From Fonticella tunisiensis (GTDB lineage: Bacteria > Bacillota > Clostridia > Clostridiales > Caloramatoraceae), in contig NZ_SOAZ01000007.1 of NCBI RefSeq assembly GCF_004364155.1, forward strand, positions 65,167 to 129,166: 64,000 nucleotides of DNA, written 5' to 3'. The notes under the pieces were generated by a model. The model searched no databases, was not told where the DNA came from, and worked only from the letters and a program-made list of their open reading frames with translations. This document shows positions 9,406-63,786 of the stretch, one piece after another. Position 1 is the stretch's first letter. Each line of letters opens with the position of its first letter. The translations under genes were made by a program, and so were the position numbers.

Positions 9406-10332
9406 TTAGTAGTTTGGAATAAGCTCACCTCTTACCACTTTTCTTTGATATTCTAATACTTCTTCGCTATTAATAAATTGCTCAAATATTTTCTTAATTC
9501 CATAGTTATTTTTATTAACTACGATAACTGCTTCTGTATCTTCTCCATTAAAGTCATTATTTTTTAAAGGATAATGTTTGATATCCAGTTTTCTTTCCAC
9601 AATCTCATCTATATTCCATATGGCTGCATCAATTTCTCCTGTAGTAAGTTTCAATATTAACTGGCTATATGATAAATCGATAAGGTTTACTTTCTTACCC
9701 TTGCACTGCTCCAAAGTAAGAAGATAATGATCAATGGAACTTTTATCTATTCCTACTTTCATCCCATCTTTAATAGTGTTATCATTTGAATCTGAGAATA
9801 TAATTACATGCTCATTAACATAGCTGTATTTTCCGAACTCCACTGCTATATCAACTTCTACTCCATTTTTTATACTATAAAGGGCAGCTAGTTTTGAAAC
9901 TATGGCAAAATCATATCTTCCATCTTTTAAAGCTCTAATTCTAGTTTCTGCTCCCCTCATATAAGCTATGCTGAAGGGGAATTTTTTATGGCTGGCTACT
10001 TTGTATAATCCTGTAGCTAAACCTTCATAGAGCTTCGAGTATGGCAAGGGCATAACGCCTGTAATTGTTCCAAAATCAGTAAACTCCCAGAGTATTTCAT
10101 AGTCTATACTGCTTATGAAAGTCCCTAAGTGTCCCCTTGGTTCAAGCCTAATAGCTTTATATTCTTCAAGAAGCTTTATTGCAGACTGCACTGTTCCCCT
10201 TGCCGTTTTATATTTATAGGAATATTCCGCAATAGTGCTAATACGGTCCCCAACATTCATTGTTATGAATTCCCTTGCTAGTTTCATAGCAACAAGACCA
10301 TTTTTTTGTAGTAATTGTGTTTTAATGCTCAT
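9406..10332 (-). CDS. yhfZ: YhfZ-family transcriptional regulator (N-terminal GntR-like HTH plus C-terminal periplasmic-binding-like domain)
   Basis: 308 aa against E. coli YhfZ at 301 aa. HTH region ISTIAEYSYKYKTARGTVQSAIKLLEE. First gene of the cluster. AAGGTGA RBS. Confidence 0.6.
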   Translation of the reverse strand: MSIKTQLLQKNGLVAMKLAREFITMNVGDRISTIAEYSYKYKTARGTVQSAIKLLEEYKAIRLEPRGHLGTFISSIDYEILWEFTDFGTITGVMPLPYSKLYEGLATGLYKVASHKKFPFSIAYMRGAETRIRALKDGRYDFAIVSKLAALYSIKNGVEVDIAVEFGKYSYVNEHVIIFSDSNDNTIKDGMKVGIDKSSIDHYLLTLEQCKGKKVNLIDLSYSQLILKLTTGEIDAAIWNIDEIVERKLDIKHYPLKNNDFNGEDTEAVIVVNKNNYGIKKIFEQFINSEEVLEYQRKVVRGELIPNY

Positions 10333-10347
10333 TTAATCACCTTAATA

Positions 10348-10430
10348 TACAATTTTCTGTACTTTATAATAACATTTATCTTTAGGCATTTCAATATATT
10401 TTTCGTAATATTTAAAATTATTTAATTATT
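10348..10430. repeat. Direct repeat copy 1 (5' region of yhfZ), ~88% identical to 11190-11275
   Basis: aatatacaattttctgtactttataataacatttatctttaggcatttcaatatatttttcgtaatatttaaaatt. Confidence 0.75.
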
Positions 10431-10504
10431 TATTAGATATGTAAACAGCATTCTATACTTTTAATTTTATTAAAGTTTGCTAGCTTCCTCTTTATCCACA
10501 ATAA

Positions 10505-11200
10505 TAGTCACATCTTAATGCAGATGTAAAATCGAAGCAGGGACTTCAGGAGAAATTTTCCCTTTTACAGTTCGTGCTATAGCATCAGACTTTGCAATAC
10601 TGCTAGCTAGAAGAATCATTATCTTTGAATGCATTATAGTTTTTATCCTCATACTTATAGCCTTTTTTGGTACTTTATCAATAGAATTGAAAAATCTAGA
10701 ATTCGCCCCAATAGTGCTTCTATCAAGATTTACAAGGTGGGTTTTCGCCTCAAAATTAACGTCCGGTTCATTAAATCCTATATATCCAATTATCCCTATT
10801 CCAAGAATCTGAATATCTATCCCACCGGCTTCTTTTATTTTTCTCTCATAGTTTAAACACTCTTGTTCTATGTCCTTTGCGTACCATTAGGTATATTAAT
10901 ATTCTGGGTTTAAATATTCTATGTGGCTAAACAGGTTTTTCATCATGTAGTAATAATAACTTTGTAGATTTTTTTCCGATTCCATAGTATTCATCCAGGT
11001 TAAATGTTTTAACTCTCGAAAAATCTATTTCTTTATTATTGTACATTTTAATTGATTCTTTATACATTCCTAATGGTGTATCCCCCGTAGCTAGTCATAA
11101 AATGCTGTTTGGTTTTAAAATTATCTAGTTTGCTATAAAAGTAACTACTTTTTTTGTAGCAAATACGTTTGTATATTCTTGTTTAAACTCAATATACAAT
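10505..11200 (-). pseudogene. nagB: Glucosamine-6-phosphate deaminase (nagB) pseudogene
   Basis: Hand translation of the minus strand gives NagB-like [42 protein letters not shown] and a C-terminal PASILHLH. It carries at least 4 in-frame stops and a +1 frameshift in an A7 run. Confidence 0.75.
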
Positions 11201-11275
11201 TTTCTGTATTCTCATAATAACATTTATTTTTACGTTTTTTCAATATATTTTTATAATATTTAAAATTGCTTAACT
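11190..11275. repeat. Direct repeat copy 2 (5' region of the nagB pseudogene)
   Basis: aatatacaattttctgtattctcataataacatttatttttacgttttttcaatatatttttataatatttaaaatt. Confidence 0.75.
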
Positions 11276-11346
11276 TTTTGTGAAAACTATGAGTTACAAA
11301 CAGAAACGGAAACTCGGAAATCAGCAGCTGAAAGGTATACAATTTA

Positions 11347-12069: not shown

Positions 12070-12249
12070 ATCATTACCTCACAAAACACTATTTTTCTAT
12101 TTCCATAATCCTTTATATTTTTCTTCTGTCCTATTATATCCTTTTAGTTTAAAGCTTTATTCACACTATCAACAGTATCTATTTAAAATATATCTTTAAA
12201 TAATAACTAAATCAAATATATAAATTAATACGTTGTGCTATTTCACAAA

Positions 12250-12352
12250 CCTTCTTAGACTGTGCGAATCCGATGCCATAGAGTTTCTTTGCGAAGTGCA
12301 GTAGCGACTGGAATATATTTTTTATCACAGCATCGGCCTGTAAATTTATCTA
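12250..12352. repeat. MITE-like element, partial copy (right TIR end)
   Basis: ggaatatattttttatcacagcatcggcctgtaaatttatct matches the terminus of the full copies. Confidence 0.6.
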
Positions 12353-13006
12353 TCAAAACGAGTTAAATTAGCAAATTTCTTATTCCTAACATCTGATAGT
12401 GCCTTTACATTTCAACCATTCTAAATGATTCTGGTAGGAATAGGTTTTAAAGCCGCTATAAGTTTATATCTCAACATTAAGCTAGTAACAATAATAAATT
12501 AAACCTATCCTTTTATGTCAATTGTTCATAAATATTGGTAAAATACAATTTTTAATGTATTTTGAAGAAATCATAAGAATTATAGCTTATATTGTGTTTT
12601 TTAATTAATTTTTTGTCTTGACTTTACAAGAGCATAAATTTATGTTATCATTCTTAATAACAATTATTCATTATCTTCTAAAACTCAATATCTTTCAGAG
12701 TTAGCATTTTATGCTTTCTTTTAAACAAGTCTTTAATTTTATCTATCTTTCAACTTTAAGCCAATTGGTTTTAAGATCGATCTTATTGAAACTCTGTGGG
12801 ATCATTTCATTATTCACAAATGATTATTAGAATCTGTCTTAATGAATTCAGACCTAAATTTTACCTGTTATAAAAGGCTTGTTTCATTAACTTTCCTATT
12901 AAAAGTCTGTTTCTCATGTGCTGCCTTTACTTCTTTCAATTTCTATGGGATCCCCTTTCATAAGCTCTTTTAAGGCAGTAAATTGCTATTTAAAGGAGGT
13001 AGATCA

Positions 13007-25068: not shown

Positions 25069-25437
25069 CTAAGCCTTCCTTGCTACGTTTTTGGTGGCTA
25101 TTACATTTACTCCTGTGTTAAGGATGTTTTCAACTATAACCTGTCCTGCTTCAACAGGAGCTTCCACCTTCACTCCCTTTAAAGCTCTTATACATTCATA
25201 AATCTTATCCTTTGGTATATCCCTTTCAGTTTTAACTGAAACCATAGCCTCTGCTCCATTTATAACCTCAAGGGTTGTGGTAATTATCCTTGTGGGATTT
25301 GTACACTCCTTTACGGCGTAATCCTCTCCCTTTTTGCAGGAATGGCCTGAAATTTTTATAACACTTCCATTCTCCACTAAAACCTCAAGGCTGCATCCAA
25401 GGGGGCATCCTATACAAATAAGCTCCTTCTTAATCAT
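25069..25437 (-). CDS. DUF1667 protein (CxxC...CxxC small subunit of the G3P dehydrogenase-like set)
   Basis: 122 aa. CIGCPLGC and HSCKKG cysteine motifs. Paralog of 54855-55217. Confidence 0.65.
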   Translation of the reverse strand: MIKKELICIGCPLGCSLEVLVENGSVIKISGHSCKKGEDYAVKECTNPTRIITTTLEVINGAEAMVSVKTERDIPKDKIYECIRALKGVKVEAPVEAGQVIVENILNTGVNVIATKNVARKA

Positions 25438-25440
25438 ATA

Positions 25441-26703
25441 CTACTCCCCCTCAACCTTAATCGTTATTTTCCTAATATCAGTCCTATCCTTGAAAAATGC
25501 CGGCTTGAGCCTTATCGTTTCCATCTCTCCGGGGGTTAGTATCCTCTTTTTAAGGTGCATAATCCTTACGTCATCAAAATATACAGATATATATTTATCC
25601 CTATAAACATTTGAAACTCTAAATCTTACGTCTACTCCATCACCAAGGTTTCCTGTATGAACCCAAACAGGAACAGTGTATCTTACTCCTTCACCTGCTG
25701 TAAGTTCTACTACTTCCCCCTTCTTTTCATACATTCCCTTTACATATCTGGCTGCATTTTTACCCGCTTCCATACTCTCCATAGTTACGAAGTCAACAAG
25801 GTCATGGACATGAAGAACGTTTCCGCAGGCAAATACCCCTGGAATCTCTGTCTCCATTGTTTCGTCAACCATTGGCCCTCCCGTATTACCTGAAATTTCA
25901 ATATTCGCCTTCCTTGTAAGCTCATTTTCAGGTATAAGCCCAACTGATAGTAAAAGGGTGTCACAGGAAACAAACTCCTCAGTACCCGGTATGATATTTC
26001 TATTTTCATCAACCTGGGCAACGGTAACCCCCTCTACCCTTTCCTTTCCCTTTATGTCAACTACTGTATGGCTGAGTTTTAGTGGTATGTTGTAATCATT
26101 TAAACACTGGACTATATTTCTTTTAAGCCCACTTGAGTATGGCAAAAGCTCATCCACTTCAACAACCTTTGCCCCTTCAAGTGTCATCCTCCTTGCCATA
26201 ATAAGCCCTATATCTCCTGAGCCTAAAACCACAATTTTTTTACCTGGCAAATATCCCTTTATATTCACATATTTCTGTGCAGTTCCTGCAGTTAAAATGC
26301 CTGCACATCTCGAGCCTGGAATATTGAGGGCTCCCCTTGGCCTTTCTCTGCAGCCCATTGCAAGCACGACGGCCTTTGCCTTTATTTCAAGTAGGCCGTC
26401 CTCCTCGTTTACTGCGGTAATTATTTTGTCCCTATTGAAATCTATTACCATTGTATTTAGCTTATAGGGGATGTTTAACTTTAAAACTTTATCTATAAAC
26501 CTTTTAGCGTACTCGGGCCCTGTAAGCTCCTCCTTAAAAATGTGAAGACCAAAACCGTTATGAATACACTGGTTTAATATTCCTCCAAGCTTATCTTCCC
26601 TTTCAAGAATGAGAATATTTTCTATTTCTTCCTCCCTGGCACTTATGGCAGCAGCAAGCCCTGCCGGTCCTCCACCGATTATTACAATATCATATTCCTT
26701 CAT
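25441..26703 (-). CDS. FAD/NAD(P)-binding pyridine nucleotide-disulfide oxidoreductase family protein
   Basis: 420 aa. Dinucleotide folds IVIIGGGPAGLAAA and VVLGSGDIGL. Paralog of 55220-56476. Confidence 0.7.
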   Translation of the reverse strand: MKEYDIVIIGGGPAGLAAAISAREEEIENILILEREDKLGGILNQCIHNGFGLHIFKEELTGPEYAKRFIDKVLKLNIPYKLNTMVIDFNRDKIITAVNEEDGLLEIKAKAVVLAMGCRERPRGALNIPGSRCAGILTAGTAQKYVNIKGYLPGKKIVVLGSGDIGLIMARRMTLEGAKVVEVDELLPYSSGLKRNIVQCLNDYNIPLKLSHTVVDIKGKERVEGVTVAQVDENRNIIPGTEEFVSCDTLLLSVGLIPENELTRKANIEISGNTGGPMVDETMETEIPGVFACGNVLHVHDLVDFVTMESMEAGKNAARYVKGMYEKKGEVVELTAGEGVRYTVPVWVHTGNLGDGVDVRFRVSNVYRDKYISVYFDDVRIMHLKKRILTPGEMETIRLKPAFFKDRTDIRKITIKVEGE

Positions 26704-26720
26704 CTAGAGCGCCCCCTTAT

Positions 26721-28160
26721 TTAATTAATGCCTTCCTTGTTTTTCTCAACCAATATGTTTGAATGCCCCCCAAACTTTGTAATATCAGTTATTGGCTCAT
26801 TAAGCTCCCTTGAGAGTATATCGACTATCCTGGTTGAACAAAAACCTGACTGGCATCTTCCCATTCCACATCTTGTTCTTCTTTTGACTGCATCAAGGGT
26901 TCTTGCACCAAGCGGCCTTCTTATTGCCTCAAGCACCTCTCCCTCAGTAACGGTTTCACACCTGCATACGATTTTTCCATAGGAAGGATTTTCTTTAATA
27001 ATTTCCCTTCTTTCATCGTTTGTAAGCTCCCTGAACTTTTTAATGGCCTTTCTTATGGGATTAAAATCCTTCTTCATTTCTGGATTAAGCTTTTGAATTA
27101 CAATTCCCTCAACCATTCTGGCAATGGCAGGTGCACTTGTAAGTCCAGGTGATTCTATTCCTGCAGCGTTTATAAAGTTTTCTGCATCATCGGCCTCCCC
27201 AATTATAAAATCCTCCTTTGTGCACCTTGCTCTAAGGCCTGCAAAGGAAGTGATTATTTTATCCGTTGGAATGCATTTCACACTCCTTTTGGCAACTCTT
27301 AAAACCTCGTTAAGTCCCTCTCTCGTTGTGCTCACATCCTCCTTATCCTCAACATCAACTGCATTTGGTCCCACGAGAAGGTTTCCATCTATTGTAGGGG
27401 CTACAAGTATTCCCTTACCAAGGGCAGTTGGAAGCTGAAATACTGTGGTTTTAACCATATCCCCAACGGATTTATCAAATACACAGTACTCCCCTCGCCT
27501 TGGAATTATCTTTATTTTATTCTTACTTACCATGTTATTTATCTCATCGGCGTAGACTCCTGCAGCATTTATAACCATTTTCGTTTTAATCACTTCATTT
27601 ATAGTCTCAATCTCATAAAAGTTTTCCTTTTTAACTATGTTTAATACCCTCGAATTTAACTTAAACTCTACCCCGTTTTCTGCTGCATTTTCAGCAAGTG
27701 CTATAGTCATTTCATATGGACAAACTATTCCTGCCGTTTCAGCATAAAGTGCTGCAACAACCTCATCTGAAAGATTTGGCTCCATCTTCATAAGTTCATC
27801 CTTATAAATTATCCTAAGCCCTGGTATTCCATTTTTCCTTCCCTGGTCTAAAAGCTTTTCAAGCCCCTTAATTTCTTCATGGCTGAAACATATTACGATT
27901 GAACCGTTTCTTCTAAATGGGAATTCAAGTTCCTCCGCAAGCTTATCATACATTGGATTACCAAGTGCATTTAGCTTTGCCTTGAGGGTTCCTGGCTTTG
28001 CATCGTAGCCTGCATGTATAATTGCACTGTTTGCCCTTGTGGTACCACAGGCAACATCGCTTTCCTTTTCCAAAACACAAATATCAAGCTTATACCTTGC
28101 AAGCTCTCTGGCAATTGAACACCCTACTACTCCAGAACCAATTATTGTAATATCAAACAT
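26721..28160 (-). CDS. FAD-dependent glycerol-3-phosphate dehydrogenase/oxidase, GlpA-like with C-terminal BFD-like [2Fe-2S] domain
   Basis: N-terminal IIGSGVVGCSIAREL. C-terminal CRCETVTEGE...CGMGRCQ. The start at 28160 carries a GGGAGGG RBS. The longer ORF-track start would overlap the upstream hairpin. Confidence 0.7.
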   Translation of the reverse strand: MFDITIIGSGVVGCSIARELARYKLDICVLEKESDVACGTTRANSAIIHAGYDAKPGTLKAKLNALGNPMYDKLAEELEFPFRRNGSIVICFSHEEIKGLEKLLDQGRKNGIPGLRIIYKDELMKMEPNLSDEVVAALYAETAGIVCPYEMTIALAENAAENGVEFKLNSRVLNIVKKENFYEIETINEVIKTKMVINAAGVYADEINNMVSKNKIKIIPRRGEYCVFDKSVGDMVKTTVFQLPTALGKGILVAPTIDGNLLVGPNAVDVEDKEDVSTTREGLNEVLRVAKRSVKCIPTDKIITSFAGLRARCTKEDFIIGEADDAENFINAAGIESPGLTSAPAIARMVEGIVIQKLNPEMKKDFNPIRKAIKKFRELTNDERREIIKENPSYGKIVCRCETVTEGEVLEAIRRPLGARTLDAVKRRTRCGMGRCQSGFCSTRIVDILSRELNEPITDITKFGGHSNILVEKNKEGIN

Positions 28161-28181
28161 GTAATCCCTCCCCATGCAAAA

Positions 28182-28220
28182 GGCCATTATTTAAGAACTC
28201 AGGTCCTTAAATAATGGCTC
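28182..28220 (-). promoter_or_regulatory. Operon-internal hairpin (candidate GlpP antitermination target or attenuator) just 5' of the glpA-like gene
   Basis: 13-bp perfect arms gccattatttaag / cttaaataatggc followed by TTTT on the minus strand. Confidence 0.4.
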
Positions 28221-28287
28221 TCCTGTACTTGGCCTTTATTTAAAATCTATTAAATATTATCATATATATAATTATTACAAAATAAAC

Positions 28288-28992
28288 TTAGAATAATCCA
28301 TTAAATATAAGTGCCCCTACTAATCCCCCGAGTATGGGAGCTATAACTGGAATCCAGGCATATCCCCAATCTGAATCTCCCTTTCCTGGAATAGGAAGTA
28401 CCGCATGGGCTATACGCGGCCCAAGGTCCCTTGCAGGATTAATTGCATAACCAGTGGGTCCGCCAAGTGCAAGACCTATTACCCAGATTAAGAGGCCAAC
28501 TGCCAGCGTTCCAAGGCCATCTGCCATCTTAACAGTTCCAAGCCCTAGAATGCCAAATACAAGTATGAAGGTTCCTATGAATTCTGATATGAAGTTTGCA
28601 CCTGTGCTTCTAATTGCAGGACCTGTACAGAATACAGCAAGTTTTGAAGCCTTATCCTCAGTTGCCGACCAGTGTGGAAGATAATGGAGATATACAATAA
28701 CTGCACCAAGAAATGCACCTATCATCTGCCCAGCTATATAAGTTGGAACCTCTGCCCACGGGAACTTTCCTATGGCTGCAAGTCCTATGGTAAGGGCCGG
28801 GTTAAAGTGAGCACCGCTTATCCCACCGAAAATGAATGCAGGAATTGCAACTGCAAATGCCCAACCAGTAGTTATAACTATCCATCCACTACTATTACCC
28901 TTTGTCTTTCCAAGAACTACGTTGGCAACAACACCGTCGCCAAGAATTATAAGTATCATGGTACCTATGACTTCTCCCAGAAAATGTGACAT
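28288..28992 (-). CDS. glpF: Glycerol uptake facilitator (MIP/aquaporin family)
   Basis: 234 aa. Two NPA motifs (HFNPALT and INPARD). Confidence 0.85.
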   Translation of the reverse strand: MSHFLGEVIGTMILIILGDGVVANVVLGKTKGNSSGWIVITTGWAFAVAIPAFIFGGISGAHFNPALTIGLAAIGKFPWAEVPTYIAGQMIGAFLGAVIVYLHYLPHWSATEDKASKLAVFCTGPAIRSTGANFISEFIGTFILVFGILGLGTVKMADGLGTLAVGLLIWVIGLALGGPTGYAINPARDLGPRIAHAVLPIPGKGDSDWGYAWIPVIAPILGGLVGALIFNGLF

Positions 28993-29009
28993 CTATACCC
29001 CTCCCTGAT

Positions 29010-30624
<1,615 letters not shown>

Positions 30625-30658
30625 AAAAATTTATTCGGAATTTTTAAAATATTATGTT

Positions 30659-31222
30659 TTATAAATCCCATAAATTCGTGCTGCTTGTTGATACCGCAAT
30701 GGCACCCATAGAAAGGCACTCAAGTACATCCTTTTTAGTTTTTATAAGTCCACCTGCTATTATAGGAAGTGAAACCCTGTCTTCAATTGAATTAATTATT
30801 CTGCTTGCAATACCGGGCAATACTTCTATTGCATCGGGCATATGGTCCTTCATATTTTTAATTCCCGTATCCAGCGAGAGGGAGTCTAATATAAATATTC
30901 TTTGAATTACTATAAGTCCAAGGTTTCTAGCATGCCTTACATTGCTGACCTTTGTTGTTATAATTCCATTCGGATTAGCCTCTTTTTTTATGTACTCAAG
31001 ACCAAGTGCATCACCCTTTAACCCCTCTATCATATCGATGTGGATGAATATTATTTTACCTGCTTCCCTGAGCCTGTTACATATGCCCTTTATATTAAGT
31101 AAATTCCCATAGAGAACGAAAACTATTTTAGGCTTTCCACTGCATGCATCTTCCAGTTGAGCATCGTTCCTTATTGCTGCAATAACAGGATTTTCAACTA
31201 AAATTTCCTCTAAATCCTGCAT
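30659..31222 (-). CDS. glpP: Glycerol-3-phosphate-responsive antiterminator GlpP
   Basis: 187 aa. Collinear with B. subtilis GlpP (IHIDMIEGL, GIITTK, LDSLSLDTG, PGI...IAGGLI). Confidence 0.8.
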   Translation of the reverse strand: MQDLEEILVENPVIAAIRNDAQLEDACSGKPKIVFVLYGNLLNIKGICNRLREAGKIIFIHIDMIEGLKGDALGLEYIKKEANPNGIITTKVSNVRHARNLGLIVIQRIFILDSLSLDTGIKNMKDHMPDAIEVLPGIASRIINSIEDRVSLPIIAGGLIKTKKDVLECLSMGAIAVSTSSTNLWDL

Positions 31223-38399: not shown

Positions 38400-38625
38400 T
38401 CACCTCCGAATAAAAAATAGCCCTGAAGTCTTAGCTTCAGGGCTATTTTTGTACAAGATATTATTCTGCTGTATAAATATAAAAAACATACAATTTCTCG
38501 TACACCTTCTTCCATCCAGACTTTAACTGTCGGCCCCGGAGTTTCACCGGATCATGCCTTTCGGCTCGCGGGCTTTACCGCCGGTGGGGACTTACACCCC
38601 GCCCTGAAGGTAATATTAATTTTTA
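38400..38625 (-). ncRNA. FMN riboswitch (RFN element) with terminator expression platform
   Basis: Minus strand reads GGGCGGGGTGTAAGTCCCCACCGGCGGTAAAGCCCGCGAGCC...CCGGTGAAACTCCGGGGCCGACAGTTAAAGTCTGGATGGAAGAAGG. Followed by the terminator hairpin agccctgaagctaagacttcagggct plus a U-run (38412-38447). Confidence 0.9.
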
Positions 38626-43454: not shown

Positions 43455-43552
43455 ATCAGCTAAGACGTTGAACCTTCACTCCCTGCATCAGATACGAAAA
43501 AGTTCTGTACACAAGCGTAGTTGTGAGAGCAATATATTTTTATCACAGCGTC
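43455..43552. repeat. MITE-like element, partial copy (right TIR end)
   Basis: acaagcgtagttgtgagagcaatatatttttatcacagcgtc. Confidence 0.6.
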
Positions 43553-43632
43553 TTTTGAAAATAAAACTAGCTCTGCATGAAACAAAATTCACCACAATAT
43601 TATGAAAACAGTTTCTAAATTAATCCGCTTTT

Positions 43633-43863
43633 CAGTTCAGGAACTAAGCGAAGATAAAAAATATATGAAATTCACATAAAACGGGCAATTAGAAGTTCTA
43701 GGCGAAGGGATGCAGAAAAATCCTAAAACTTTCGTGACTTAAGCAAGGCGAGTTTAACGAAAGTTCTTGATTTTTCAAATCCCGAGCCTTAGAACTTCTT
43801 TGCAAAGCGTGCTGGTGAATGAAATATATTTTTTATCGCAGCGTCGGCCTGTAAATTTATCTG
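43633..43863. repeat. MITE-like element, full copy (inverted relative to the 62938 copy, about 90% identical)
   Basis: Ends aagcgaagataaaaaatatat ... atatattttttatcgcagcgtcggcctgtaaatttatctg. Interior is the reverse complement of copy 62938-63142. Confidence 0.7.
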
Positions 43864-43906
43864 CTTTTATTCCAACGGGCTTTTCAGAGTAGCACAACGC
43901 GTTAAG

Positions 43907-44485
43907 TTAATTTACCGTTCCCCTAAGTCCGATCTCATCTGCTACCTTTTGCATTCCTTTTATGGTTTCCCCTATAACGTAATCGAGTTCAAGACCAAGC
44001 ATTGCTGCGCCCTCTTCGATTACTTCCCTCTTTACTCCTGCCGCAAAGCTCCTCTGCTTCCACTTCTTTTTAATGGATTTTACCTCAATATCCATGATGC
44101 TTTTGCTTGGTCTAACAAGAGCTGCAGCAGCAATAAGCCCAGTAAGCTCATCTATTGTATATAATACCTTCTCCATTCTCTCTACCGGTTCAACATCTGA
44201 ACAAAGCTTCCACCCGTGGCTGACTATGGCCCTTATGTACTCCTTTGGCCAGTTTTCCTCTTCGAGTATTTCCTTGGTCATCGTACAGTGTTTGTCGGGA
44301 TACATCTCATAATCAAGATCGTGCACAAGCCCAATAATTCCCCACTTCTCTACATCTTCGCCAAAAAGATTTGCAAAATGTCTCATAACTGCTTCAACAG
44401 CAACAGCGTGGCGTATGAGGCTTTCATCCTTATTATATTTTTTCAAAAGCTCAAAGGCCTCTTCCCTTGTAGGTATCTTTTGCAT
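43907..44485 (-). CDS. HD-domain metal-dependent phosphohydrolase
   Basis: 192 aa. H...HD motif (LVHDLDY). Confidence 0.6.
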   Translation of the reverse strand: MQKIPTREEAFELLKKYNKDESLIRHAVAVEAVMRHFANLFGEDVEKWGIIGLVHDLDYEMYPDKHCTMTKEILEEENWPKEYIRAIVSHGWKLCSDVEPVERMEKVLYTIDELTGLIAAAALVRPSKSIMDIEVKSIKKKWKQRSFAAGVKREVIEEGAAMLGLELDYVIGETIKGMQKVADEIGLRGTVN

Positions 44486-49614: not shown

Positions 49615-49834
49615 TATGCACCACTCCTATCAAATTTTATATTTCGCAACCAGCAGATCAAATCCATCAATTTATATACAATATATTATATATTATAGAT
49701 ATAAAATAACTTAATTTCCAGTAATTAATATTTATGATAATACATTTATTTCCTATTCGATAATACATTACTATAAATATTTATTCCATTTTATTTTGCT
49801 CATTTATTATGTTATTATTTTTACTCGTTGTGCT

Positions 49835-50065
49835 AGATAAATTTACAGACCGACGCTGCGATAAAAAATATATGAAACGAACTATTTTAGCGAGCAACTA
49901 GAGGTTCTTAGCGAGAGGACATCTGAGAAGCCGAAGTAGAGTTCGTGGTGTTTGAGCTAAGCGAGTTTTAAAAGCTTACTTGGCTTGTCAGCTGTCCCGA
50001 GCTTTAGAACCTCTATGCGCAAGCGTAGTTGTGAGAGTAATATATTTTTTATCACAGCGTCGATC
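49835..50065. repeat. MITE-like element, full copy with ~35-40-bp terminal inverted repeats
   Basis: agataaatttacagaccgacgctgcgataaaaaatatat ... atatattttttatcacagcgtcgatctgca. Internal inverted repeats ctagaggttcttagcgag / cccgagctttagaacctctat. Confidence 0.7.
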
Positions 50066-50203
50066 TGCATATTCTTTCTGCTATTATTCCAATGGGCTTT
50101 TTAGAGTAGCATATTTTAATAATACGTTATAAAGGGATGATGTTCCCGTAGATTAAATCAGAACGTCATCCCTTTAGCTTATTATCCCCGTGATTATTTA
50201 AAA

Positions 50204-54854: not shown

Positions 54855-55217
54855 TCATATTTTTTTTGCATTAGAAGTGGCAACAACATCAACACCTGTA
54901 CCAAGTATGTCTTTAATTACAATATCACCAATTGATACAGGGGCTTTCAATTTTACACCGTTTATTTCCTTCATAACGTCGAATATCAGTTTCTTTGGTA
55001 TTTCTCTGCTGGTTTTTACAGATACAAGCATTTTATCTCCATTAAGAACCCTAACAGTTGAAGTTACAATCCTTCTTGGGTCCTTAATCTCTGATATTCC
55101 ATATTCCCTTCCTCTTTTACACTTGTTGCCAGAGACATTAATTTCCTCGCCATCTATTGTTATCTCCAGACTGCATCCAAGAGGGCAATTAATGCATATC
55201 ATTTTCTTTACTTCCAT
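54855..55217 (-). CDS. DUF1667 protein (paralog of 25069-25437)
   Basis: 120 aa. CINCPLGC motif. Confidence 0.65.
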   Translation of the reverse strand: MEVKKMICINCPLGCSLEITIDGEEINVSGNKCKRGREYGISEIKDPRRIVTSTVRVLNGDKMLVSVKTSREIPKKLIFDVMKEINGVKLKAPVSIGDIVIKDILGTGVDVVATSNAKKI

Positions 55218-55219
55218 AT

Positions 55220-56476
55220 TTACACCTCCTCCAGATGGAATGTTATTTCTCCCTTTTTGATTTGTTTTAGTACTTCTCTTTTAATTTTAAGATGCTCCAT
55301 CTCTCCTGGAGAAACCATCTGCTTCTTTACTTTTGTTATTACTGTGTCGCCCTGCTTTGCACATAGATATACGTTTCTGTATACATTGTCGACACGCATA
55401 AAGAAGTTCACTTCATTATCAACATTTTCAGAATTTATAATGCATGGAACTACATAGCGTACGCCGCCGTTGCCTTTTGCGTATATTCTTTCATCAGACT
55501 TTTTGAGCTCTTTTTTAATATATTTTGCCGCTCCACGCCCTGCAAGCCTGCTTTCCTCTGTAACAAAGTCCACAAGGTCATGTACATGTACAACATTTCC
55601 ACATGCGAATATTCCATCTATGGATGTCTGCATAGATTCATCCACCACAGGACCAGATGTTATATCGTTTATCTTAACTCCTGCTTCCCTTGAAAGCTCG
55701 TTTTCAGGTATAAGCCCTACCGAAAGTAGAAGTGTATCACATTCAACAAACCTTTCGGTTCCGGGTATTGGTTTTCTATCATCTCCAACCTTAGCTATAG
55801 TTACTCCCTCAAGCCTTTCCTTTCCATGTATCCGCACAACCGTATGGCTAAAAAGCAGAGGTATGTTAAAGTCATCAAGGCACTGCACAATGTTTCTCTT
55901 AAGCCCCGTTGAGTATGGCATAAGCTCTACAACCATTTCAACCTTTGCTCCTTCAAGCGTCATACGTCTTGCCATAATTAGTCCGATATCTCCCGAACCC
56001 AATATTACAACCTTTTTCCCAACCATATGTCCTTCTATATTAACAAATCTTTGAGCTGCTCCTGCTGTAAGCACACCTGCCGGCCTTGTACCGGGTATGT
56101 TTAGCGCCCCTCTGGTCCTTTCCCTGCAGCCCATTGCAAGTATAATTGCCTTAGCTTTTATATTTATAATTCCATCTTCAGGGTTTATAGCCTGAATAGT
56201 TTTATCACTGGATATATGAAGTACCATTGTATCAAGCTTGTATTCAATATTTAACTTCTCTACTTCCTTTATAAACCTGTCAGCATATTCTGGACCTGTT
56301 AACTGTTCTCCAAATATGTGAAGTCCGAATCCGTTATGAATGCACTGCTGAAGTATTCCACCAAGGCTCTTATCCCTTTCAAGAATGAGTATATCTTCTA
56401 TTCCGTTTTTTCTTGCCTCAACTGCTGCCGCAAGCCCCGCAGGTCCTCCGCCGATTATAACAATCTCTCTTTCCAT
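55220..56476 (-). CDS. FAD/NAD(P)-binding pyridine nucleotide-disulfide oxidoreductase family protein (paralog of 25441-26703)
   Basis: 418 aa. About 75% identical to the paralog by eye. Confidence 0.7.
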   Translation of the reverse strand: MEREIVIIGGGPAGLAAAVEARKNGIEDILILERDKSLGGILQQCIHNGFGLHIFGEQLTGPEYADRFIKEVEKLNIEYKLDTMVLHISSDKTIQAINPEDGIINIKAKAIILAMGCRERTRGALNIPGTRPAGVLTAGAAQRFVNIEGHMVGKKVVILGSGDIGLIMARRMTLEGAKVEMVVELMPYSTGLKRNIVQCLDDFNIPLLFSHTVVRIHGKERLEGVTIAKVGDDRKPIPGTERFVECDTLLLSVGLIPENELSREAGVKINDITSGPVVDESMQTSIDGIFACGNVVHVHDLVDFVTEESRLAGRGAAKYIKKELKKSDERIYAKGNGGVRYVVPCIINSENVDNEVNFFMRVDNVYRNVYLCAKQGDTVITKVKKQMVSPGEMEHLKIKREVLKQIKKGEITFHLEEV

Positions 56477-56487
56477 GTTATCCCTCC

Positions 56488-57912
56488 TTATTTAGTCCTG
56501 CCTGTAAGTATTTTGCTGCCTTCTCCAGCCTTTAGGATTTCTTCAGGTTCTACCTTAAGCTCTCTGGCCAGGATTTCAACAACCCTTGGCATACAAAATC
56601 CACCCTGACATCTTCCCATTCCAGCCCTGAGCCTTTTTTTAACCCCATCAACTGTTCTTGCCCCAAGGGGCCTGTATATTGCATTAATTATGTCTCCCTC
56701 TGTTATATGTTCGCACCTGCAGATCACTCTTCCATAAAGCTTGTTCTCCTTAAGGGCCTGTTCCTTTTCTTCCTGGTTCATATCTATAAATCTTCTTGGT
56801 TTAACCCTCTTTGGATTAAAGTTCTCTTTTTTATTGAGAATAAGTCCCTGTTCCCTTAGAAGATCTAAAACCATAAGTGCTACTGCAGGTGCAGATGTAA
56901 GTCCCGGTGATTCAATCCCTGCTGCATTTACAGCACCCTTTGAAGGAGAGTTTATTATAAAATCTCCCGTATCAGGCGTAGCTCTAACCCCTGTAAATGA
57001 AGTTATTACGTCCCTTAAATTTATGTTTCTTACACTCCGTTGAGCTCCTTTTATTACTTCATCAAGGCCCTCAAAGGTGGTTGACGTATCATCCTTTTCA
57101 TAAATTTCAACAGCATTAGGTCCTAAAAGCAGGTTCCCATGAACTGTTGGAGAAACAAGTATTCCCTTTCCCTTTGATGTTGGAACCTGAAAGATAGTGT
57201 TTTTAACATGTTTTCCCTGAGTCTTATCTAACAGGCAGTACTCTCCTTTTCTTGGGATTATCCTGAATTCTTTACCACCAAGCATTCTGTTTATTTCGTC
57301 CGCAAACAAACCTGCTGCATTTACAACATATTTAGCCTCTATATTCCCTCTGCTAGTCTCTACTATAAAGTAATCCTCTCTCCTTTTTATATTTCTAACT
57401 TCAGTTTGGAACTGAAATTTTACACCATTTTGAAAAGCAATCTCTGCAAGGGCAATTGCCAATTCATAAGGTGACACAATTCCTCCCGTTTTTGCATGAA
57501 GCGCTCCAACAGCATTTTCGCTTATGTTAGGTTCAATTTTTCTAAGCTGTTCCCCATCTATGATTTCAAGCTCCTTAACTCCATTTCTTATTCCCCTTTC
57601 ATAAAGCTTTTCAACATGCTTCATTTCTTCATCACTAAAGGCTATTACCAAGGAACCATTTCTTATAAAATCAACATCAAGTTCTTTACATAAATCCTCA
57701 TACATTTCATTTCCCATCACATTCAGCTTAGCTTTTAATGTTCCTTCCTTTGCATCATAACCTGCATGTACAATTCCACTGTTTGCTTTTGTCGCACCAT
57801 TAGCTATATCATAGCTCTTTTCAACAACCATTACATCAATCTGATATTTTGATAGTTCCCTTGCGATTGCAGTACCTGTAATTCCTGCTCCTATAACGAT
57901 TACATCAATCAT
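56488..57912 (-). CDS. FAD-dependent G3P dehydrogenase/oxidase, GlpA-like with BFD-like domain (paralog of 26721-28160)
   Basis: 474 aa. VIVIGAGITGTAIAREL N-terminus and CRCEHITEGD...CGMGRCQ C-terminus. Confidence 0.7.
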   Translation of the reverse strand: MIDVIVIGAGITGTAIARELSKYQIDVMVVEKSYDIANGATKANSGIVHAGYDAKEGTLKAKLNVMGNEMYEDLCKELDVDFIRNGSLVIAFSDEEMKHVEKLYERGIRNGVKELEIIDGEQLRKIEPNISENAVGALHAKTGGIVSPYELAIALAEIAFQNGVKFQFQTEVRNIKRREDYFIVETSRGNIEAKYVVNAAGLFADEINRMLGGKEFRIIPRKGEYCLLDKTQGKHVKNTIFQVPTSKGKGILVSPTVHGNLLLGPNAVEIYEKDDTSTTFEGLDEVIKGAQRSVRNINLRDVITSFTGVRATPDTGDFIINSPSKGAVNAAGIESPGLTSAPAVALMVLDLLREQGLILNKKENFNPKRVKPRRFIDMNQEEKEQALKENKLYGRVICRCEHITEGDIINAIYRPLGARTVDGVKKRLRAGMGRCQGGFCMPRVVEILARELKVEPEEILKAGEGSKILTGRTK

Positions 57913-57938
57913 AATTACACCCCCTAATCAATAATTAA

Positions 57939-57985
57939 AGCCGTGCCAAAAAGACCATATTTATGGTCCAATCAGCACGGCTCTC
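57939..57985 (-). promoter_or_regulatory. Nested hairpin in the glpK2-glpA2 spacer (attenuator or antitermination target candidate)
   Basis: agccgtgc...gaccatatttatggtc...gcacggct. The inner stem is followed by TTTTT on the minus strand. Confidence 0.4.
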
Positions 57986-58047
57986 ACATCTCGCCATTAA
58001 ATATTTACTTTACTCAAATTATATCATAATATTTTAAAATTTCAAAC

Positions 58048-59553
<1,506 letters not shown>

Positions 59554-59619
59554 CTAGGTTTTCTTTTTTAGAACATCTCTTATATAGATGTTTATTTGGT
59601 TAGCTTCAATGCTTATCAG

Positions 59620-59690
59620 CCAATCCGATCTCTTAAACTTCCTTGCACAAGCGTATTAGTAAATGGAATATATTTTTTATCACAGCGTTT
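59620..59690. repeat. MITE-like element, partial copy inside the glpF2-glpK2 operon spacer
   Basis: cacaagcgtattagtaaatggaatatattttttatcacagcg. Confidence 0.6.
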
Positions 59691-59734
59691 TTTAAGCCAA
59701 AAATGGCACAACGAGTTATATTAATAGTCCAATA

Positions 59735-60547
59735 TTACCTATTAACGTTTTTACTCTTTGACTCAATTTTGATTCCCGGAAAATATGGCACAATTAGCTT
59801 TTCATAAACAAATCCACCTGCTAATGCACCAGCTATTGGTCCAAATATAGGAACTATAAATCCATATTCATTCGCTCCCACTGCTGCCCTTCCCCAGCCC
59901 GCAATCATGGCAAAAAGCCTTGGCCCAAGGTCACGTGCAGGGTTCATTGAAAATCCTGTTAATGGTCCAAAGGATGTTCCTATGATTGCTATTGTAAGGC
60001 CTATCATAACAGCAGCCATTCCTGCTGTTGGTGTATTGGTGTTTCTTGAGTCGCCTACTGCAAAAATAACTAATACGAGAAATGCAGTAATTGCAAACTC
60101 CACCATGAAAGCTTCAAAATTATTTAAATATGGCTGCGGGAAGGTTGTAAATATTCCAACAAGCTTTACACTTTCCGCAGTTCCTCTTACAAGACCTGCG
60201 TTCTTTTCAAATAAAAGGAATGCTGGTCTAAACAGCCCATAAACCGCTGCAGCAGCGGTAAACGTTCCTGCAATTTGAGCAATAATATAAGGAACAATCT
60301 TCTTCCTGTCAAACCCCTTCCATACTGCAAGAGTTATTGTTACTGCAGGGTTTATATGTGTTCCTGAAACTGCTCCTGTTACATAGATAGCCATTGTAAC
60401 TGCAAGTCCCCATACCAATGATAATTCCCATTGACTTATGTTGGTTTTGTTTAGAACAAGAGTTGCAACAACTCCAGCACCAATGAATATAAGAATAAAT
60501 GATCCGATAAATTCTGCCACCAGTTCCCCAAATATGCTTTTTTTCAT
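59735..60547 (-). CDS. MIP-family glycerol/diol facilitator (second paralog)
   Basis: 270 aa. NPA motifs (HINPAVT and MNPARD). Confidence 0.8.
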   Translation of the reverse strand: MKKSIFGELVAEFIGSFILIFIGAGVVATLVLNKTNISQWELSLVWGLAVTMAIYVTGAVSGTHINPAVTITLAVWKGFDRKKIVPYIIAQIAGTFTAAAAVYGLFRPAFLLFEKNAGLVRGTAESVKLVGIFTTFPQPYLNNFEAFMVEFAITAFLVLVIFAVGDSRNTNTPTAGMAAVMIGLTIAIIGTSFGPLTGFSMNPARDLGPRLFAMIAGWGRAAVGANEYGFIVPIFGPIAGALAGGFVYEKLIVPYFPGIKIESKSKNVNR

Positions 60548-62870: not shown

Positions 62871-62937
62871 TATTGCTTCTATAGTCTGTCCATATTTCAT
62901 TTCTAAATTAACTCATCGTTCTGGTTTTCACTTTCAA

Positions 62938-63142
62938 AGAACGCTGCGATAAAAAATATATTTCATTCACCAGTGCGCTTAGCAAAGAAGTTCTAAGACT
63001 CGGGATTTGAAAAATCAAGAACTTTCATCAAACTCGCCTTGCTCAAACAAATGAAAGTTCTAGGATTTTTCTGCATCCCTTCGCCTGGAACTTCTAGATG
63101 CTCGCTTTATGTGAATTCCATATATTTTTTATCTCCGCTTTC
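62938..63142. repeat. MITE-like element, full copy
   Basis: Ends gaacgctgcgataaaaaatatat ... atatattttttatctccgctttcttagc. Reverse complement of 43633-43863 in the interior. Confidence 0.7.
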
Positions 63143-63189
63143 TTAGCAGAAAGCAGGATATTGTCAAACTAATTGCAACATTATTATAT

Positions 63190-63444
63190 GCAAAAAATAA
63201 AATGGCTCCATGGAGAGGACCTAAGCCTCCAACCCGACCGTTGAACTGCTGGCTTGCGACAACATTGTATTCAAAAATAAAATGGCTCCATGGAGAGGAC
63301 TCGAACCTCCAACCCGACCGTTGAACTGCTGGCTTGCGACAACATTGTATTCAAAAAATAAAGTGGCTCCATGGAGAGGACCTAAGCCTCCAACCCGACC
63401 GTTAAACAGCTGGCTTGCGACAACATTGTATTCAAAAAATAAAA
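63190..63444 (-). repeat. Three tandem ~80-bp units, each holding a 3' fragment of tRNA-Asn (anticodon arm through CCA-proximal acceptor) plus an identical ~22-bp spacer
   Basis: tggctccatggagaggac(c/t)(t/c)(a/g)a(g/a)cctccaacccgaccgtt... repeated at 63203, 63283 and 63364. Spacer caacattgtattcaaaaaataaaa. Confidence 0.7.
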
Positions 63445-63521
63445 TGGCTCCATGGAGAGGACTCGAACCTCCAACCCTCCGGTTAACAGCCGGATGCTCC
63501 ACCATTGAGCTACCATGGAAC
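63445..63521 (-). tRNA. tRNA-Asn (GTT)
   Basis: Reverse complement GTTCCATGGTAGCTCAATGGTGGAGCATCCGGCTGTTAACCGGAGGGTTGGAGGTTCGAGTCCTCTCCATGGAGCCA. Anticodon loop CTGTTAA and T-loop GGTTCGAGTCC. Confidence 0.7.
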
Positions 63522-63543
63522 GATAAAGATTTATTCAATTGAA

Positions 63544-63662
63544 TCCGGCAGCTACCTACTCTCCCGAGCCGTCTCCAGCTCAGTACCATCGGCCCTGCAG
63601 GGCTTAACCGACCTGGCTCGGATGGGAGCGGGTTACTCACCCTGCACTCCCTATCGTCAGGT
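63544..63662 (-). pseudogene. Degenerate 5S rRNA-like copy (diverged helix I and loop B)
   Basis: Shares the 3' 60 nt with the neighbouring 5S. CCGAGCCAGGTCGGTTAAG replaces the conserved CCGAACACGAAGGTTAAG. The 5' end cannot pair with the 3' end. Confidence 0.5.
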
Positions 63663-63669
63663 GTTATTC

Positions 63670-63786
63670 ATCCGGCAGCTACCTACTCTCCCATGGCGTC
63701 TCCGCCATAGTACCATCGGCGTTACAGGGCTTAACCTTCGTGTTCGGAATGGGAACGGGTGTATCCCCTGCACCATCGCCACCGGA
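63670..63786 (-). rRNA. rrf: 5S ribosomal RNA
   Basis: Reverse complement TCCGGTGGCGATGGTGCAGGGGATACACCCGTTCCCATTCCGAACACGAAGGTTAAGCCCTGTAACGCCGATGGTACTATGGCGGAGACGCCATGGGAGAGTAGGTAGCTGCCGGA. Confidence 0.85.

Follow-up and report, generated by a model that had tools for sequence, protein, structure and literature searches.

Modular, palindromic intergenic repeats in Fonticella tunisiensis, probably of the miniature inverted-repeat transposable element type

The 64-kb stretch of DNA analysed here (all 64,000 nucleotides of it are meant by "the window") comes from Fonticella tunisiensis, a thermophilic relative of Clostridium (Clostridiaceae). It carries a family of short repeats that occupies six intergenic loci with nine arms in all, as three full palindromes (copies A, B and C) and three half-elements (S1, S2 and S3). 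On balance, we read these as Fonticella-specific, non-coding, modular and almost fully palindromic repeats of the MITE (miniature inverted-repeat transposable element) type, which are by now old and largely fixed. The family is previously undescribed, and belongs to the familiar class of lineage-specific stem-loop repeats.

The copy set is well delimited. An nhmmer profile built from an alignment of the nine arms finds exactly those nine (E 1e-14 to 1e-23) and no other match in the 64 kb; all six loci are also recovered when the three long copies are run against the window by BLASTN, and repeat finding agrees. The 39-nucleotide (nt) end sequence of the family matches three times at three or fewer mismatches, compared with no matches in 100 shuffled windows, while the 14-nt core, GATAAAAAATATAT, has eight exact matches and one unrelated one-mismatch match (0.28 expected at up to one mismatch). 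A first-pass annotation, made from the sequence alone, had listed six intergenic copies, and all six are recovered at or within a few bases of where it placed them, far beyond chance. The ends that it gave to the copies fare less well: the repeats continue outward, and an outer motif (M1, below) lies beyond the ends then assigned. Likewise, the three loci that it called solo-end fragments are real, but each is a half-element of one arm type, cut near the centre of dyad symmetry. The full copies are 268–297 bp long and the half-elements 89–148 bp, and all six loci are clustered within 51 kb. Coding capacity is nil, with a longest open frame of 52 codons and no conserved open reading frame (ORF).

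Two arm types can be distinguished: alpha (the right arms of A and B, the left arm of C, and S1, S2 and S3) and beta (the left arms of A and B, and the right arm of C). In each full copy an alpha arm pairs with a beta arm, each of ~95 nt. The half-elements consist of alpha arms only, each running from the core to within ~10 nt of the dyad. Copies B and C are 90–93% identical in opposite orientation (repeat matches and BLASTN), and A is ~70% identical to both, in keeping with the two interior variants that had been proposed. The first-pass annotation had taken B to be the inverted copy; in fact the interior similarity aligns A on the plus strand with B on the plus strand and C on the minus strand, so it is C that is inverted.

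The most conserved block of the arms, the core, is subterminal rather than terminal. Its 14 nt are exact in eight of the nine arms (the S2 version is one A short), and a longer stretch of about 21 nt (ACGCTGYGATAAAAAATATAT) is common to six of the nine. In each of A, B and C the two arms carry inverted cores; the inverted match extends over 34 nt in A (88% identity) and over as many in C (82%). Outside the core lie three kinds of module: the 19-nt motif M1 (AAATTAACTCGTTGTGCTA); M2 (GCTTTTATTCCAAYGGGCTTTTYAGAGTAGCA), a 32-nt module that follows A and B; and M3 (AGATAAATTTACAGGCCG), which is the outer 18 nt of the earlier description. M1 has seven matches in the window at four or fewer mismatches, compared with 0.4 in shuffled sequence, and six of the seven abut an arm, always pointing inward. 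The 39-nt end is itself an optional module, present only at the left of A, the right of B and in S1, degenerate at the right of A, and absent from C, which also has neither M3 nor M2. S1 has M1 in inverted orientation at its two ends, and so, with degenerate motifs, does B; since the outer modules are optional, the true termini are ambiguous. Clean terminal inverted repeats of 35–40 bp, as the first-pass annotation had described, are thus not present: the 39-nt sequence never occurs at the two ends of one copy, and the ends are modular. The positions of arms and modules are collected in Table 1; for B and C they rest on the sequence and repeat matches, for S2 on the sequence and an arm match, and for S3 on the sequence and motif matches.

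Several known signals were considered for M1 and rejected by eye for misfits in spacing or key positions: a sigma-54 promoter, a cre or CodY box, and an integron attC site. The central loop agrees with M1 at 11 of 16 positions, a likeness that is not significant by a hand estimate.

Table 1. Members of the repeat family in the window, their modules, and their state in other Fonticella samples
Element	Position	Strand	Kind	Modules	Basis	Other samples
Copy A	49817–50113	+	full palindrome, ~297 bp	M1 49817–49835; M3 (AGATAAATTTACAGACCG) 49835–49852; core (ACGCTGCGATAAAAAATATAT) 49853–49873; beta arm to about 49945; dyad about 49946–49965; alpha arm 49966–50061; core 50040–50060; degenerate M3 50061–50079; M2 50080–50111; truncated M1 to 50113	sequence, motif matches, nhmmer arms, folds	left side present in ERZ925058
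Copy B	43617–43908	+	full element, ~292 bp, colinear with A	degenerate M1 43617–43635; beta arm 43646–43739; core GATAAAAAATATAT 43653–43666; alpha arm 43752–43845; core 43824–43844; M3 43845–43862; M2 43863–43894; M1 43890–43908		right modules present in SRR33394489
Copy C	62905–63172	−	full element, ~268 bp, inverted relative to A and B	M1-like 62905–62923; linker CTTTCAAAG; core 62941–62961; alpha arm 62941–63032; beta arm 63046–63140; core 63120–63133; terminal hairpin GCTTTCT-TAGC-AGAAAGC 63137–63154		2 substitutions in ERZ925058 (biogas metagenome)
S1	12222–12369	+	half-element, 148 bp, with M1 flanking it on either side in inverted orientation	M1 12222–12240; alpha arm 12241–12334; core 12313–12333; M3 12334–12351; inverted M1 12351–12369	sequence, motif matches	100% identical within the element in SRR33394489
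S2	43464–43552	+	half-element, ~65 nt upstream of copy B	alpha arm; core minus one T (ATATATTTTTATCACAGCGT) 43532–43551		
S3	59601–59722	+	half-element	alpha arm 59601–59688; core 59668–59688; short linker; M1 59704–59722		97% over the aligned glpF-glpK spacer in SRR11194427

The palindromic build of the full copies is reflected in their predicted folds. For copy A a single long hairpin is predicted, with −95.1 kcal/mol (z = −9.4) on one strand and −92.9 kcal/mol (z = −11.1) on the other, and B and C fold like it, each as one long imperfect palindrome. The inverted repeats that had earlier been seen in the interiors hold up, and in the folding predictions belong to a single long hairpin per full copy. 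In an alignment of A, B and C, 91% of the cells in a 69-pair consensus hairpin are standard pairs, despite the ~70% identity of A. Seven pairs have changed on both sides, as compared with 2.3 ± 1.3 in column shuffles (none of 500 as high), and the number of such paired changes falls to 0–2 when the partners are slid by 1–3 columns. Dyad symmetry has been retained through ~30% divergence, a result that, with three sequences, is a modest one.

The two strands are not equivalent. The beta-to-alpha strand (plus in A and B, minus in C) folds 2–9 kcal/mol better than its complement and has 15 G-U pairs as against 7; moreover, both substitutions that copy C shows in the biogas strain are transitions that would give G-U pairs on this strand. 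This bias is suggestive only. Each strand of every full copy combines a long hairpin with an A6 and a T6 tract, and a consensus scan detected no canonical intrinsic terminator in any copy. A similar scan found a weak, inward-facing promoter-like site within M3 (TTTACA-16-AAAAAT, 9 of 12 positions). Nor do the elements belong to a known structured RNA, one of the outcomes that would have told against a mobile element: Rfam gives no match at gathering thresholds and, at E ≤ 10, only snoRNA and miRNA models at chance level (E ≥ 0.3).

The family extends beyond the window, which disposes of the concern that its copies might be confined to it. A peptide profile of the translated core frame (IYFLSQR) was searched against 1.84 billion representative proteins and led to TDT51345.1, a 45-aa "hypothetical protein EDD71_11829 [Fonticella tunisiensis]" encoded on another contig (59.7 kb). 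The protein (...ALEPLCASVVVRAIYFLSQLIKKELAQQVNT) is the translation of an A-like alpha arm with its core and a short linker, and in the right frame it goes on into M1, LAQQVN corresponding to TTAGCACAACAAGTTAAT. The same search returned a 52-aa ORF from a JGI metagenome (P0248), which is another translated copy. Ten element ORFs were also looked up exactly, and one is on record; a fused query of element-derived peptides gave no match in a homologous-protein search. Gene callers thus turn copies into spurious proteins, as seen in TDT51345.1 and in a 45-aa Logan ORF laid over S1 (12212–12328, minus).

Assembly breakpoints point to further copies. The k=31 Logan contigs of SRR8436138 (same strain, 100% identical) stop exactly 29 nt inside exact shared runs, a rule validated by a 32-nt run common to two glpK paralogues, where contigs end at 59029 and 59056 as predicted. 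Four other contig ends (49864, 62960, 43869 and 50032) imply runs starting at 49835 and 62931 and ending at 43898 and 50061. These runs have no second occurrence within the window, and so further copies probably lie elsewhere in the genome.

Outside Fonticella, no convincing member was found. The 21-nt core pattern was scanned in 185,579 representative genomes, JGI metagenomes and IMG/VR viral contigs. There were eight single matches in the representative genomes and 13 in the JGI metagenomes, and BLAST showed these to share the pattern only, so that they are attributable to chance; the IMG/VR viral contigs gave none. The representative set evidently lacks the source genome, because a copy deduced from contig ends would contain the 21-nt pattern. 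Plasmids and phages gave no match to blastn in distant mode. The nearest GlpF relatives outside Fonticella, from Thermobrachium celere and Caloramator mitchellensis, are only ~71% identical; T. celere lacks S3, and its 20.8-kb locus contains no arm-profile match. As judged from these searches, the family looks specific to the Fonticella lineage. Among the papers searched, none of those mentioning the genus treats Fonticella repeats.

The elements were compared with three other Fonticella samples, which are 96.5–99.7% identical to the window (Table 1, last column). Copies B and C differ from each other by 7–10%, more than the strains differ, which places the last duplication seen before the divergence of the strains. 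The single difference seen between strains in the make-up of a locus is at locus A. In SRR33394489, the 8.5 kb leading up to the HPr terminator are 99.1% identical to the window, flank identity ends at ...TTATTAAAA (bracketing the right boundary of copy A), and the junction with the element lies at the same base. Beyond it, however, stands another family member, whose arm is 83% identical to S1 and 65% to the right arm of window copy A, and whose outer modules are 84% identical to those on the right of A, with eight more nt of M1. A contig that switched between copies at this junction is excluded, because the flank is unique. Exchange between copies, by gene conversion or recombination, is the best account of this replacement; that an element re-entered a preferred site is less likely.

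Across phoA, copy C and the adjoining tRNA array, the strain in the biogas metagenome ERZ925058 (L025, 2503–4016) is 98.7% identical to the window. It then enters a 440-aa gene instead of the 5S/23S genes (window 63523 onward), which reflects a rearrangement or else a join made at the tRNA repeats during assembly.

All six loci lie in spacers of ordinary genes, in agreement with the earlier observation that copies occupy promoter and terminator spacers and, once, the inside of an operon. S1 is in the divergent spacer between ecsC (minus) and a gene for an opuCA-like ABC ATPase (plus). S2, which is 89–90% identical to the alpha arm of copy A over 38–50 nt, shares with B the convergent spacer between a DUF362/ferredoxin gene and an HD-domain gene (43907–44485, minus), the stop codon of which is overlapped by the M1 of copy B. 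Copy A, at the end of the dha cluster, is flanked by the terminator hairpin of HPr and the promoter region of pgsA, and copy C by the phoA terminator and the end of an rrn-5S-5S-tRNA-Asn array. The copy inside an operon is S3, within the glpF-glpK spacer of a minus-strand glycerol operon and starting 13 nt after the glpF stop codon; this spacer measures 193 nt here versus 18 nt in T. celere, where the downstream operon order is the same.

Published descriptions of prokaryotic MITEs list sizes below 500 bp, lack of coding capacity, terminal inverted repeats, intergenic positions, stem-loops, truncated copies and a loss of direct repeats with age (PMC10969869, PMC3184786). The MITE reading rests on the fit of the Fonticella repeats to this description in size, inverted termini, location in intergenic AT-rich spacers (20–26% G+C), stem-loops and truncated copies (PMC10969869, PMC3184786). 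The repeats are small, encode no transposase, have inverted termini and occur in multiple dispersed copies. As the first-pass annotation had also concluded, a cognate transposase is absent from the window: domain searches revealed no transposase, integrase or phage domain in any ORF of the 64 kb. We infer that the past spread of the family relied on a trans-acting transposase encoded elsewhere in the genome, which would have recognised M1, the conserved core, or both. Most copies would now be old and fixed, and would still exchange sequence by recombination or gene conversion. Where full copies are co-transcribed with their neighbours, they would fold into hairpins of 70–85 bp, which probably serve as transcription barriers, terminators or sites of RNA processing or stability.

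Several observations weigh against this assignment. A systematic scan for target-site duplications, which the first-pass annotation had proposed looking for, found no consistent 2–10 bp duplication at any plausible boundary pair, however the boundaries were defined; the AGCG/CGCT repeats of B and C lie within the shared palindrome. This weakens MITE membership without excluding it, given that direct repeats erode in old MITEs. TA precedes the A(C/T)NCG of M1 in all seven instances, which fits a TA target and is inseparable from element sequence. The ends are heterogeneous, with three different arrangements between core and M1: (i) core, a short TTTTNAAA-type linker and M1 (the alpha side of C, and S3; S2 has a similar linker and no recognisable M1), (ii) core, M3 and M1 (S1 and the beta side of A), and (iii) core, M3, M2 and M1 (the alpha sides of A and B). 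At 34–41%, the G+C content of the elements is close to the genome mean, rather than AT-rich as is typical of MITEs. Finally, an empty site was seen at none of the five loci that could be checked in other strains, all of which are occupied, so that there is no evidence of recent transposition; the sole strain difference is the replacement at locus A, neither an insertion nor an excision.

Comparison with known systems places the family among similar repeats without identifying it with any of them; closest to it are those that are fully palindromic or modular, namely Correia, RUP, bcr1, Chunjie and BOX. Whole-element dyad symmetry is also a property of Correia/NEMIS (Neisseria), RUP (S. pneumoniae), bcr1 (Bacillus cereus group), Chunjie (Geobacter) and QMITE (Coxiella). 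Correia and RUP give TA duplications and bcr1 gives TTTAT, whereas the Fonticella family has no demonstrable target-site duplication. It differs from all of these MITEs, too, in its subterminal core and in ends composed of optional modules, and sequence similarity to them was neither found nor expected. Like Chunjie, it has a copy inside an operon. In other respects—a length below 500 bp, lack of coding capacity, inverted-repeat termini, intergenic positions, stable stem-loops, partial copies and restriction to a species or genus—these MITEs and the Fonticella family are alike (PMC10969869, PMC3184786). The BOX elements of S. pneumoniae (boxA-boxB(n)-boxC) resemble it in having optional modules, the outer ones pairing into a long hairpin, and also in having no known transposase, a range of one species group, very few new insertions, and a tendency to cluster with other repeats (PMC3049150, PMC10969869). 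BOX is unrelated in sequence, and what varies there is the number of tandem boxB units, as opposed to the presence of M2, M3 and linker and the loss of whole arms in Fonticella. ERIC/IRU and REP/BIME elements, like the Fonticella family, are imperfect palindromes in transcribed intergenic regions, and BIMEs are mosaic. REPs are 20–40 nt long and rich in G+C; their head, GTAG, is conserved, and a RAYT transposase is associated with them. The Fonticella units, by contrast, are 120–300 bp long at 34–41% G+C, and the window contains neither a RAYT gene nor any Y1 transposase domain; of the traits that define REPs and BIMEs, mosaic organisation is the only one shared.

It is nevertheless the REP/BIME- or ERIC-like reading that forms the main rival. 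Under it, the repeats would be structural or regulatory palindromes maintained by the host and homogenised by recombination, gene conversion or a RAYT-like enzyme, with hairpins that are kept to terminate transcription both ways, to insulate units or to stabilise upstream mRNA. We consider this the less likely account, though one to be taken seriously. The mosaic of M1, M2, M3 and linkers would be at home in such a system, as would the lack of target-site duplications and the occupancy of every orthologous site checked, and the swap of one family member for another between flanks of 99% identity is what gene conversion would give. Homogenisation by gene conversion, and effects on mRNA stability and attenuation, are proposed for REP and ERIC sequences in work cited by PMC2267715. 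A role in termination would suit the position of four of five loci directly after gene 3′ ends, the A-tract, hairpin and U-tract that the core provides on either strand, and the compensatory changes that keep the hairpin; yet phoA and HPr already have terminator hairpins of their own upstream of C and A, the scan mentioned above recognised no canonical terminator in the elements, and S1 sits in a promoter spacer. Half-elements, moreover, persist without the ability to form the long hairpin, one of them inside an operon. The elements are 5–10 times the length of a REP, and their restriction to a single lineage favours a parasite-like origin. Lineage restriction and slow turnover have led the pneumococcal BOX, RUP and SPRITE repeats to be read in the same way, as old parasitic elements that affect co-transcribed genes (PMC3049150).

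A second group of explanations is more doubtful still. One bolder variant, which we think unlikely, takes the propagating unit to be a half-unit of ~150 bp (M1, alpha arm, core and M1, as in S1), of which the full palindromes would be head-to-head dimers; spread would then occur mainly by copy-to-copy recombination or gene conversion, and the hairpin would be selected on the beta-to-alpha strand as a bidirectional transcription barrier or an RNA-processing signal. It is slightly less probable that the repeats are small-RNA genes or cis-regulatory RNAs, each full copy having its own inward promoter and a hairpin RNA of ~200 nt as product. The long arms do carry the inward TTTACA-16-AAAAAT site in conserved form, but this matches at 9 of 12 positions only and lies inside the optional M3, so that copy C and one arm of B lack it. 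The better fold of the beta-to-alpha strand, its excess of G-U pairs, the two wobble-forming substitutions of copy C and the covarying pairing all point the same way, toward an RNA; the strand asymmetry, however, rests on two independent lineages (binomial p ~0.07). Rfam offers no matching family, an RNA gene would not be expected to come as half-elements or with variable modules, and the orientation relative to neighbouring genes is inconsistent. Least probable of all, by our estimate, is that the copies are fragments of a larger element (insertion sequence ends, an integrative element or a prophage) concentrated in this region. The clustering of six loci in 51 kb would suit such an origin, as would the tandem tRNA-Asn 3′ halves that copy C abuts, a typical integrase target. 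Integrase, transposase and phage genes are missing from the window, though; phage, plasmid and IMG/VR collections hold no match; and the copies are separated by housekeeping operons syntenic with Thermobrachium, with one copy on another contig altogether.

The remainder of the window is unremarkable in gene content. It has a G+C content of 37% and a majority of genes on the minus strand, and its proteins correspond to GenBank records by exact match (GlpK TDT61369, HPr TDT61360, PgsA TDT61359 and RibH TDT61349). The genes are of housekeeping type: a yhfZ-yhfX-like cluster, ecsC, opuC, sugar phosphotransferase system and glycosidase genes, two paralogous glycerol clusters, a rib operon with a flavin mononucleotide (FMN) riboswitch, MCP, Band_7 and pgsA genes, a dha operon with HPr, phoA, and the 3′ end of an rrn operon. 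A search for paralogues of the MCP found none from Fonticella among the 120 best matches. The FMN riboswitch (38500–38615, minus; 113 bits) lies upstream of the ribD-ribE-ribBA-ribH operon and is ordinary.

The two glycerol-utilisation clusters, at 25069–31222 and 54855–60547, are 66–79% identical at the DNA level, and both contain glpK along with genes for an MIP channel, two FAD oxidoreductases and a DUF1667 protein. Only the first has a gene for the GlpP antiterminator (30659–31222), and the second alone has an adjacent sigma-54 activator and the S3 half-element. Between the glpK paralogue and glpP, at 30590–30629, there is a perfect 40-nt palindrome (TTTTCTCAGCCCTAATATATATATATTAGGGCTGAGAAAA), a textbook bidirectional terminator with no relation to the repeat family. 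Equally unrelated to the hairpin family is an AT-rich segment of ~130 nt that occurs twice, at 10301–10431 and 11149–11279 (79% identical), in the long spacer that separates ecsC from a yhfZ-like regulator gene; a 45-aa ORF is predicted nearby by gene callers.

Copy C is adjoined by an unusual tRNA array. At 63173–63444 (minus), beside tRNA-Asn (63445–63519), lie three tandem 81-nt units and a truncated fourth (63173–63202). The right edge of copy C falls at 63172/63173, where homology between the truncated fourth unit and the intact ones stops. Each full unit consists of a T-rich stretch, a conserved 36-nt segment and then the last ~33 nt of tRNA-Asn, comprising the T arm, the 3′ acceptor strand and CCA; the complete tRNA-Asn, which comes first, is the only one called by ARAGORN and Rfam. 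The arrangement resembles the serial duplication of tRNA 3′ halves that integrase att sites can leave, and no integrase is nearby. Two tandem 5S rRNA genes follow the 23S gene, at 63543–63658 and 63670–63786 (minus). The distal gene scores 38.7 bits against 105.5 for the proximal one, the two being 79% identical over 91 nt, and may be a decaying duplicate.

The Fonticella repeats add one lineage-specific stem-loop family to those already described, and open no new category. Their practical consequence is that Fonticella assemblies made from short reads break at predictable points, and that spurious "hypothetical proteins" are created. For the biology of the family, locus A offers a clear example of one family member having replaced another, at a fixed position, between strains of 99% identity, and bears on how such families are homogenised. 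For that of the host, the predicted 70–85 bp hairpins at operon ends (A, B and C) could plausibly alter termination, read-through or mRNA decay, in an organism that draws interest for biogas production and thermophilic fermentation. Should the half-unit account prove true, the family would represent a domesticated, self-homogenising system of regulatory repeats in a relative of Clostridium.

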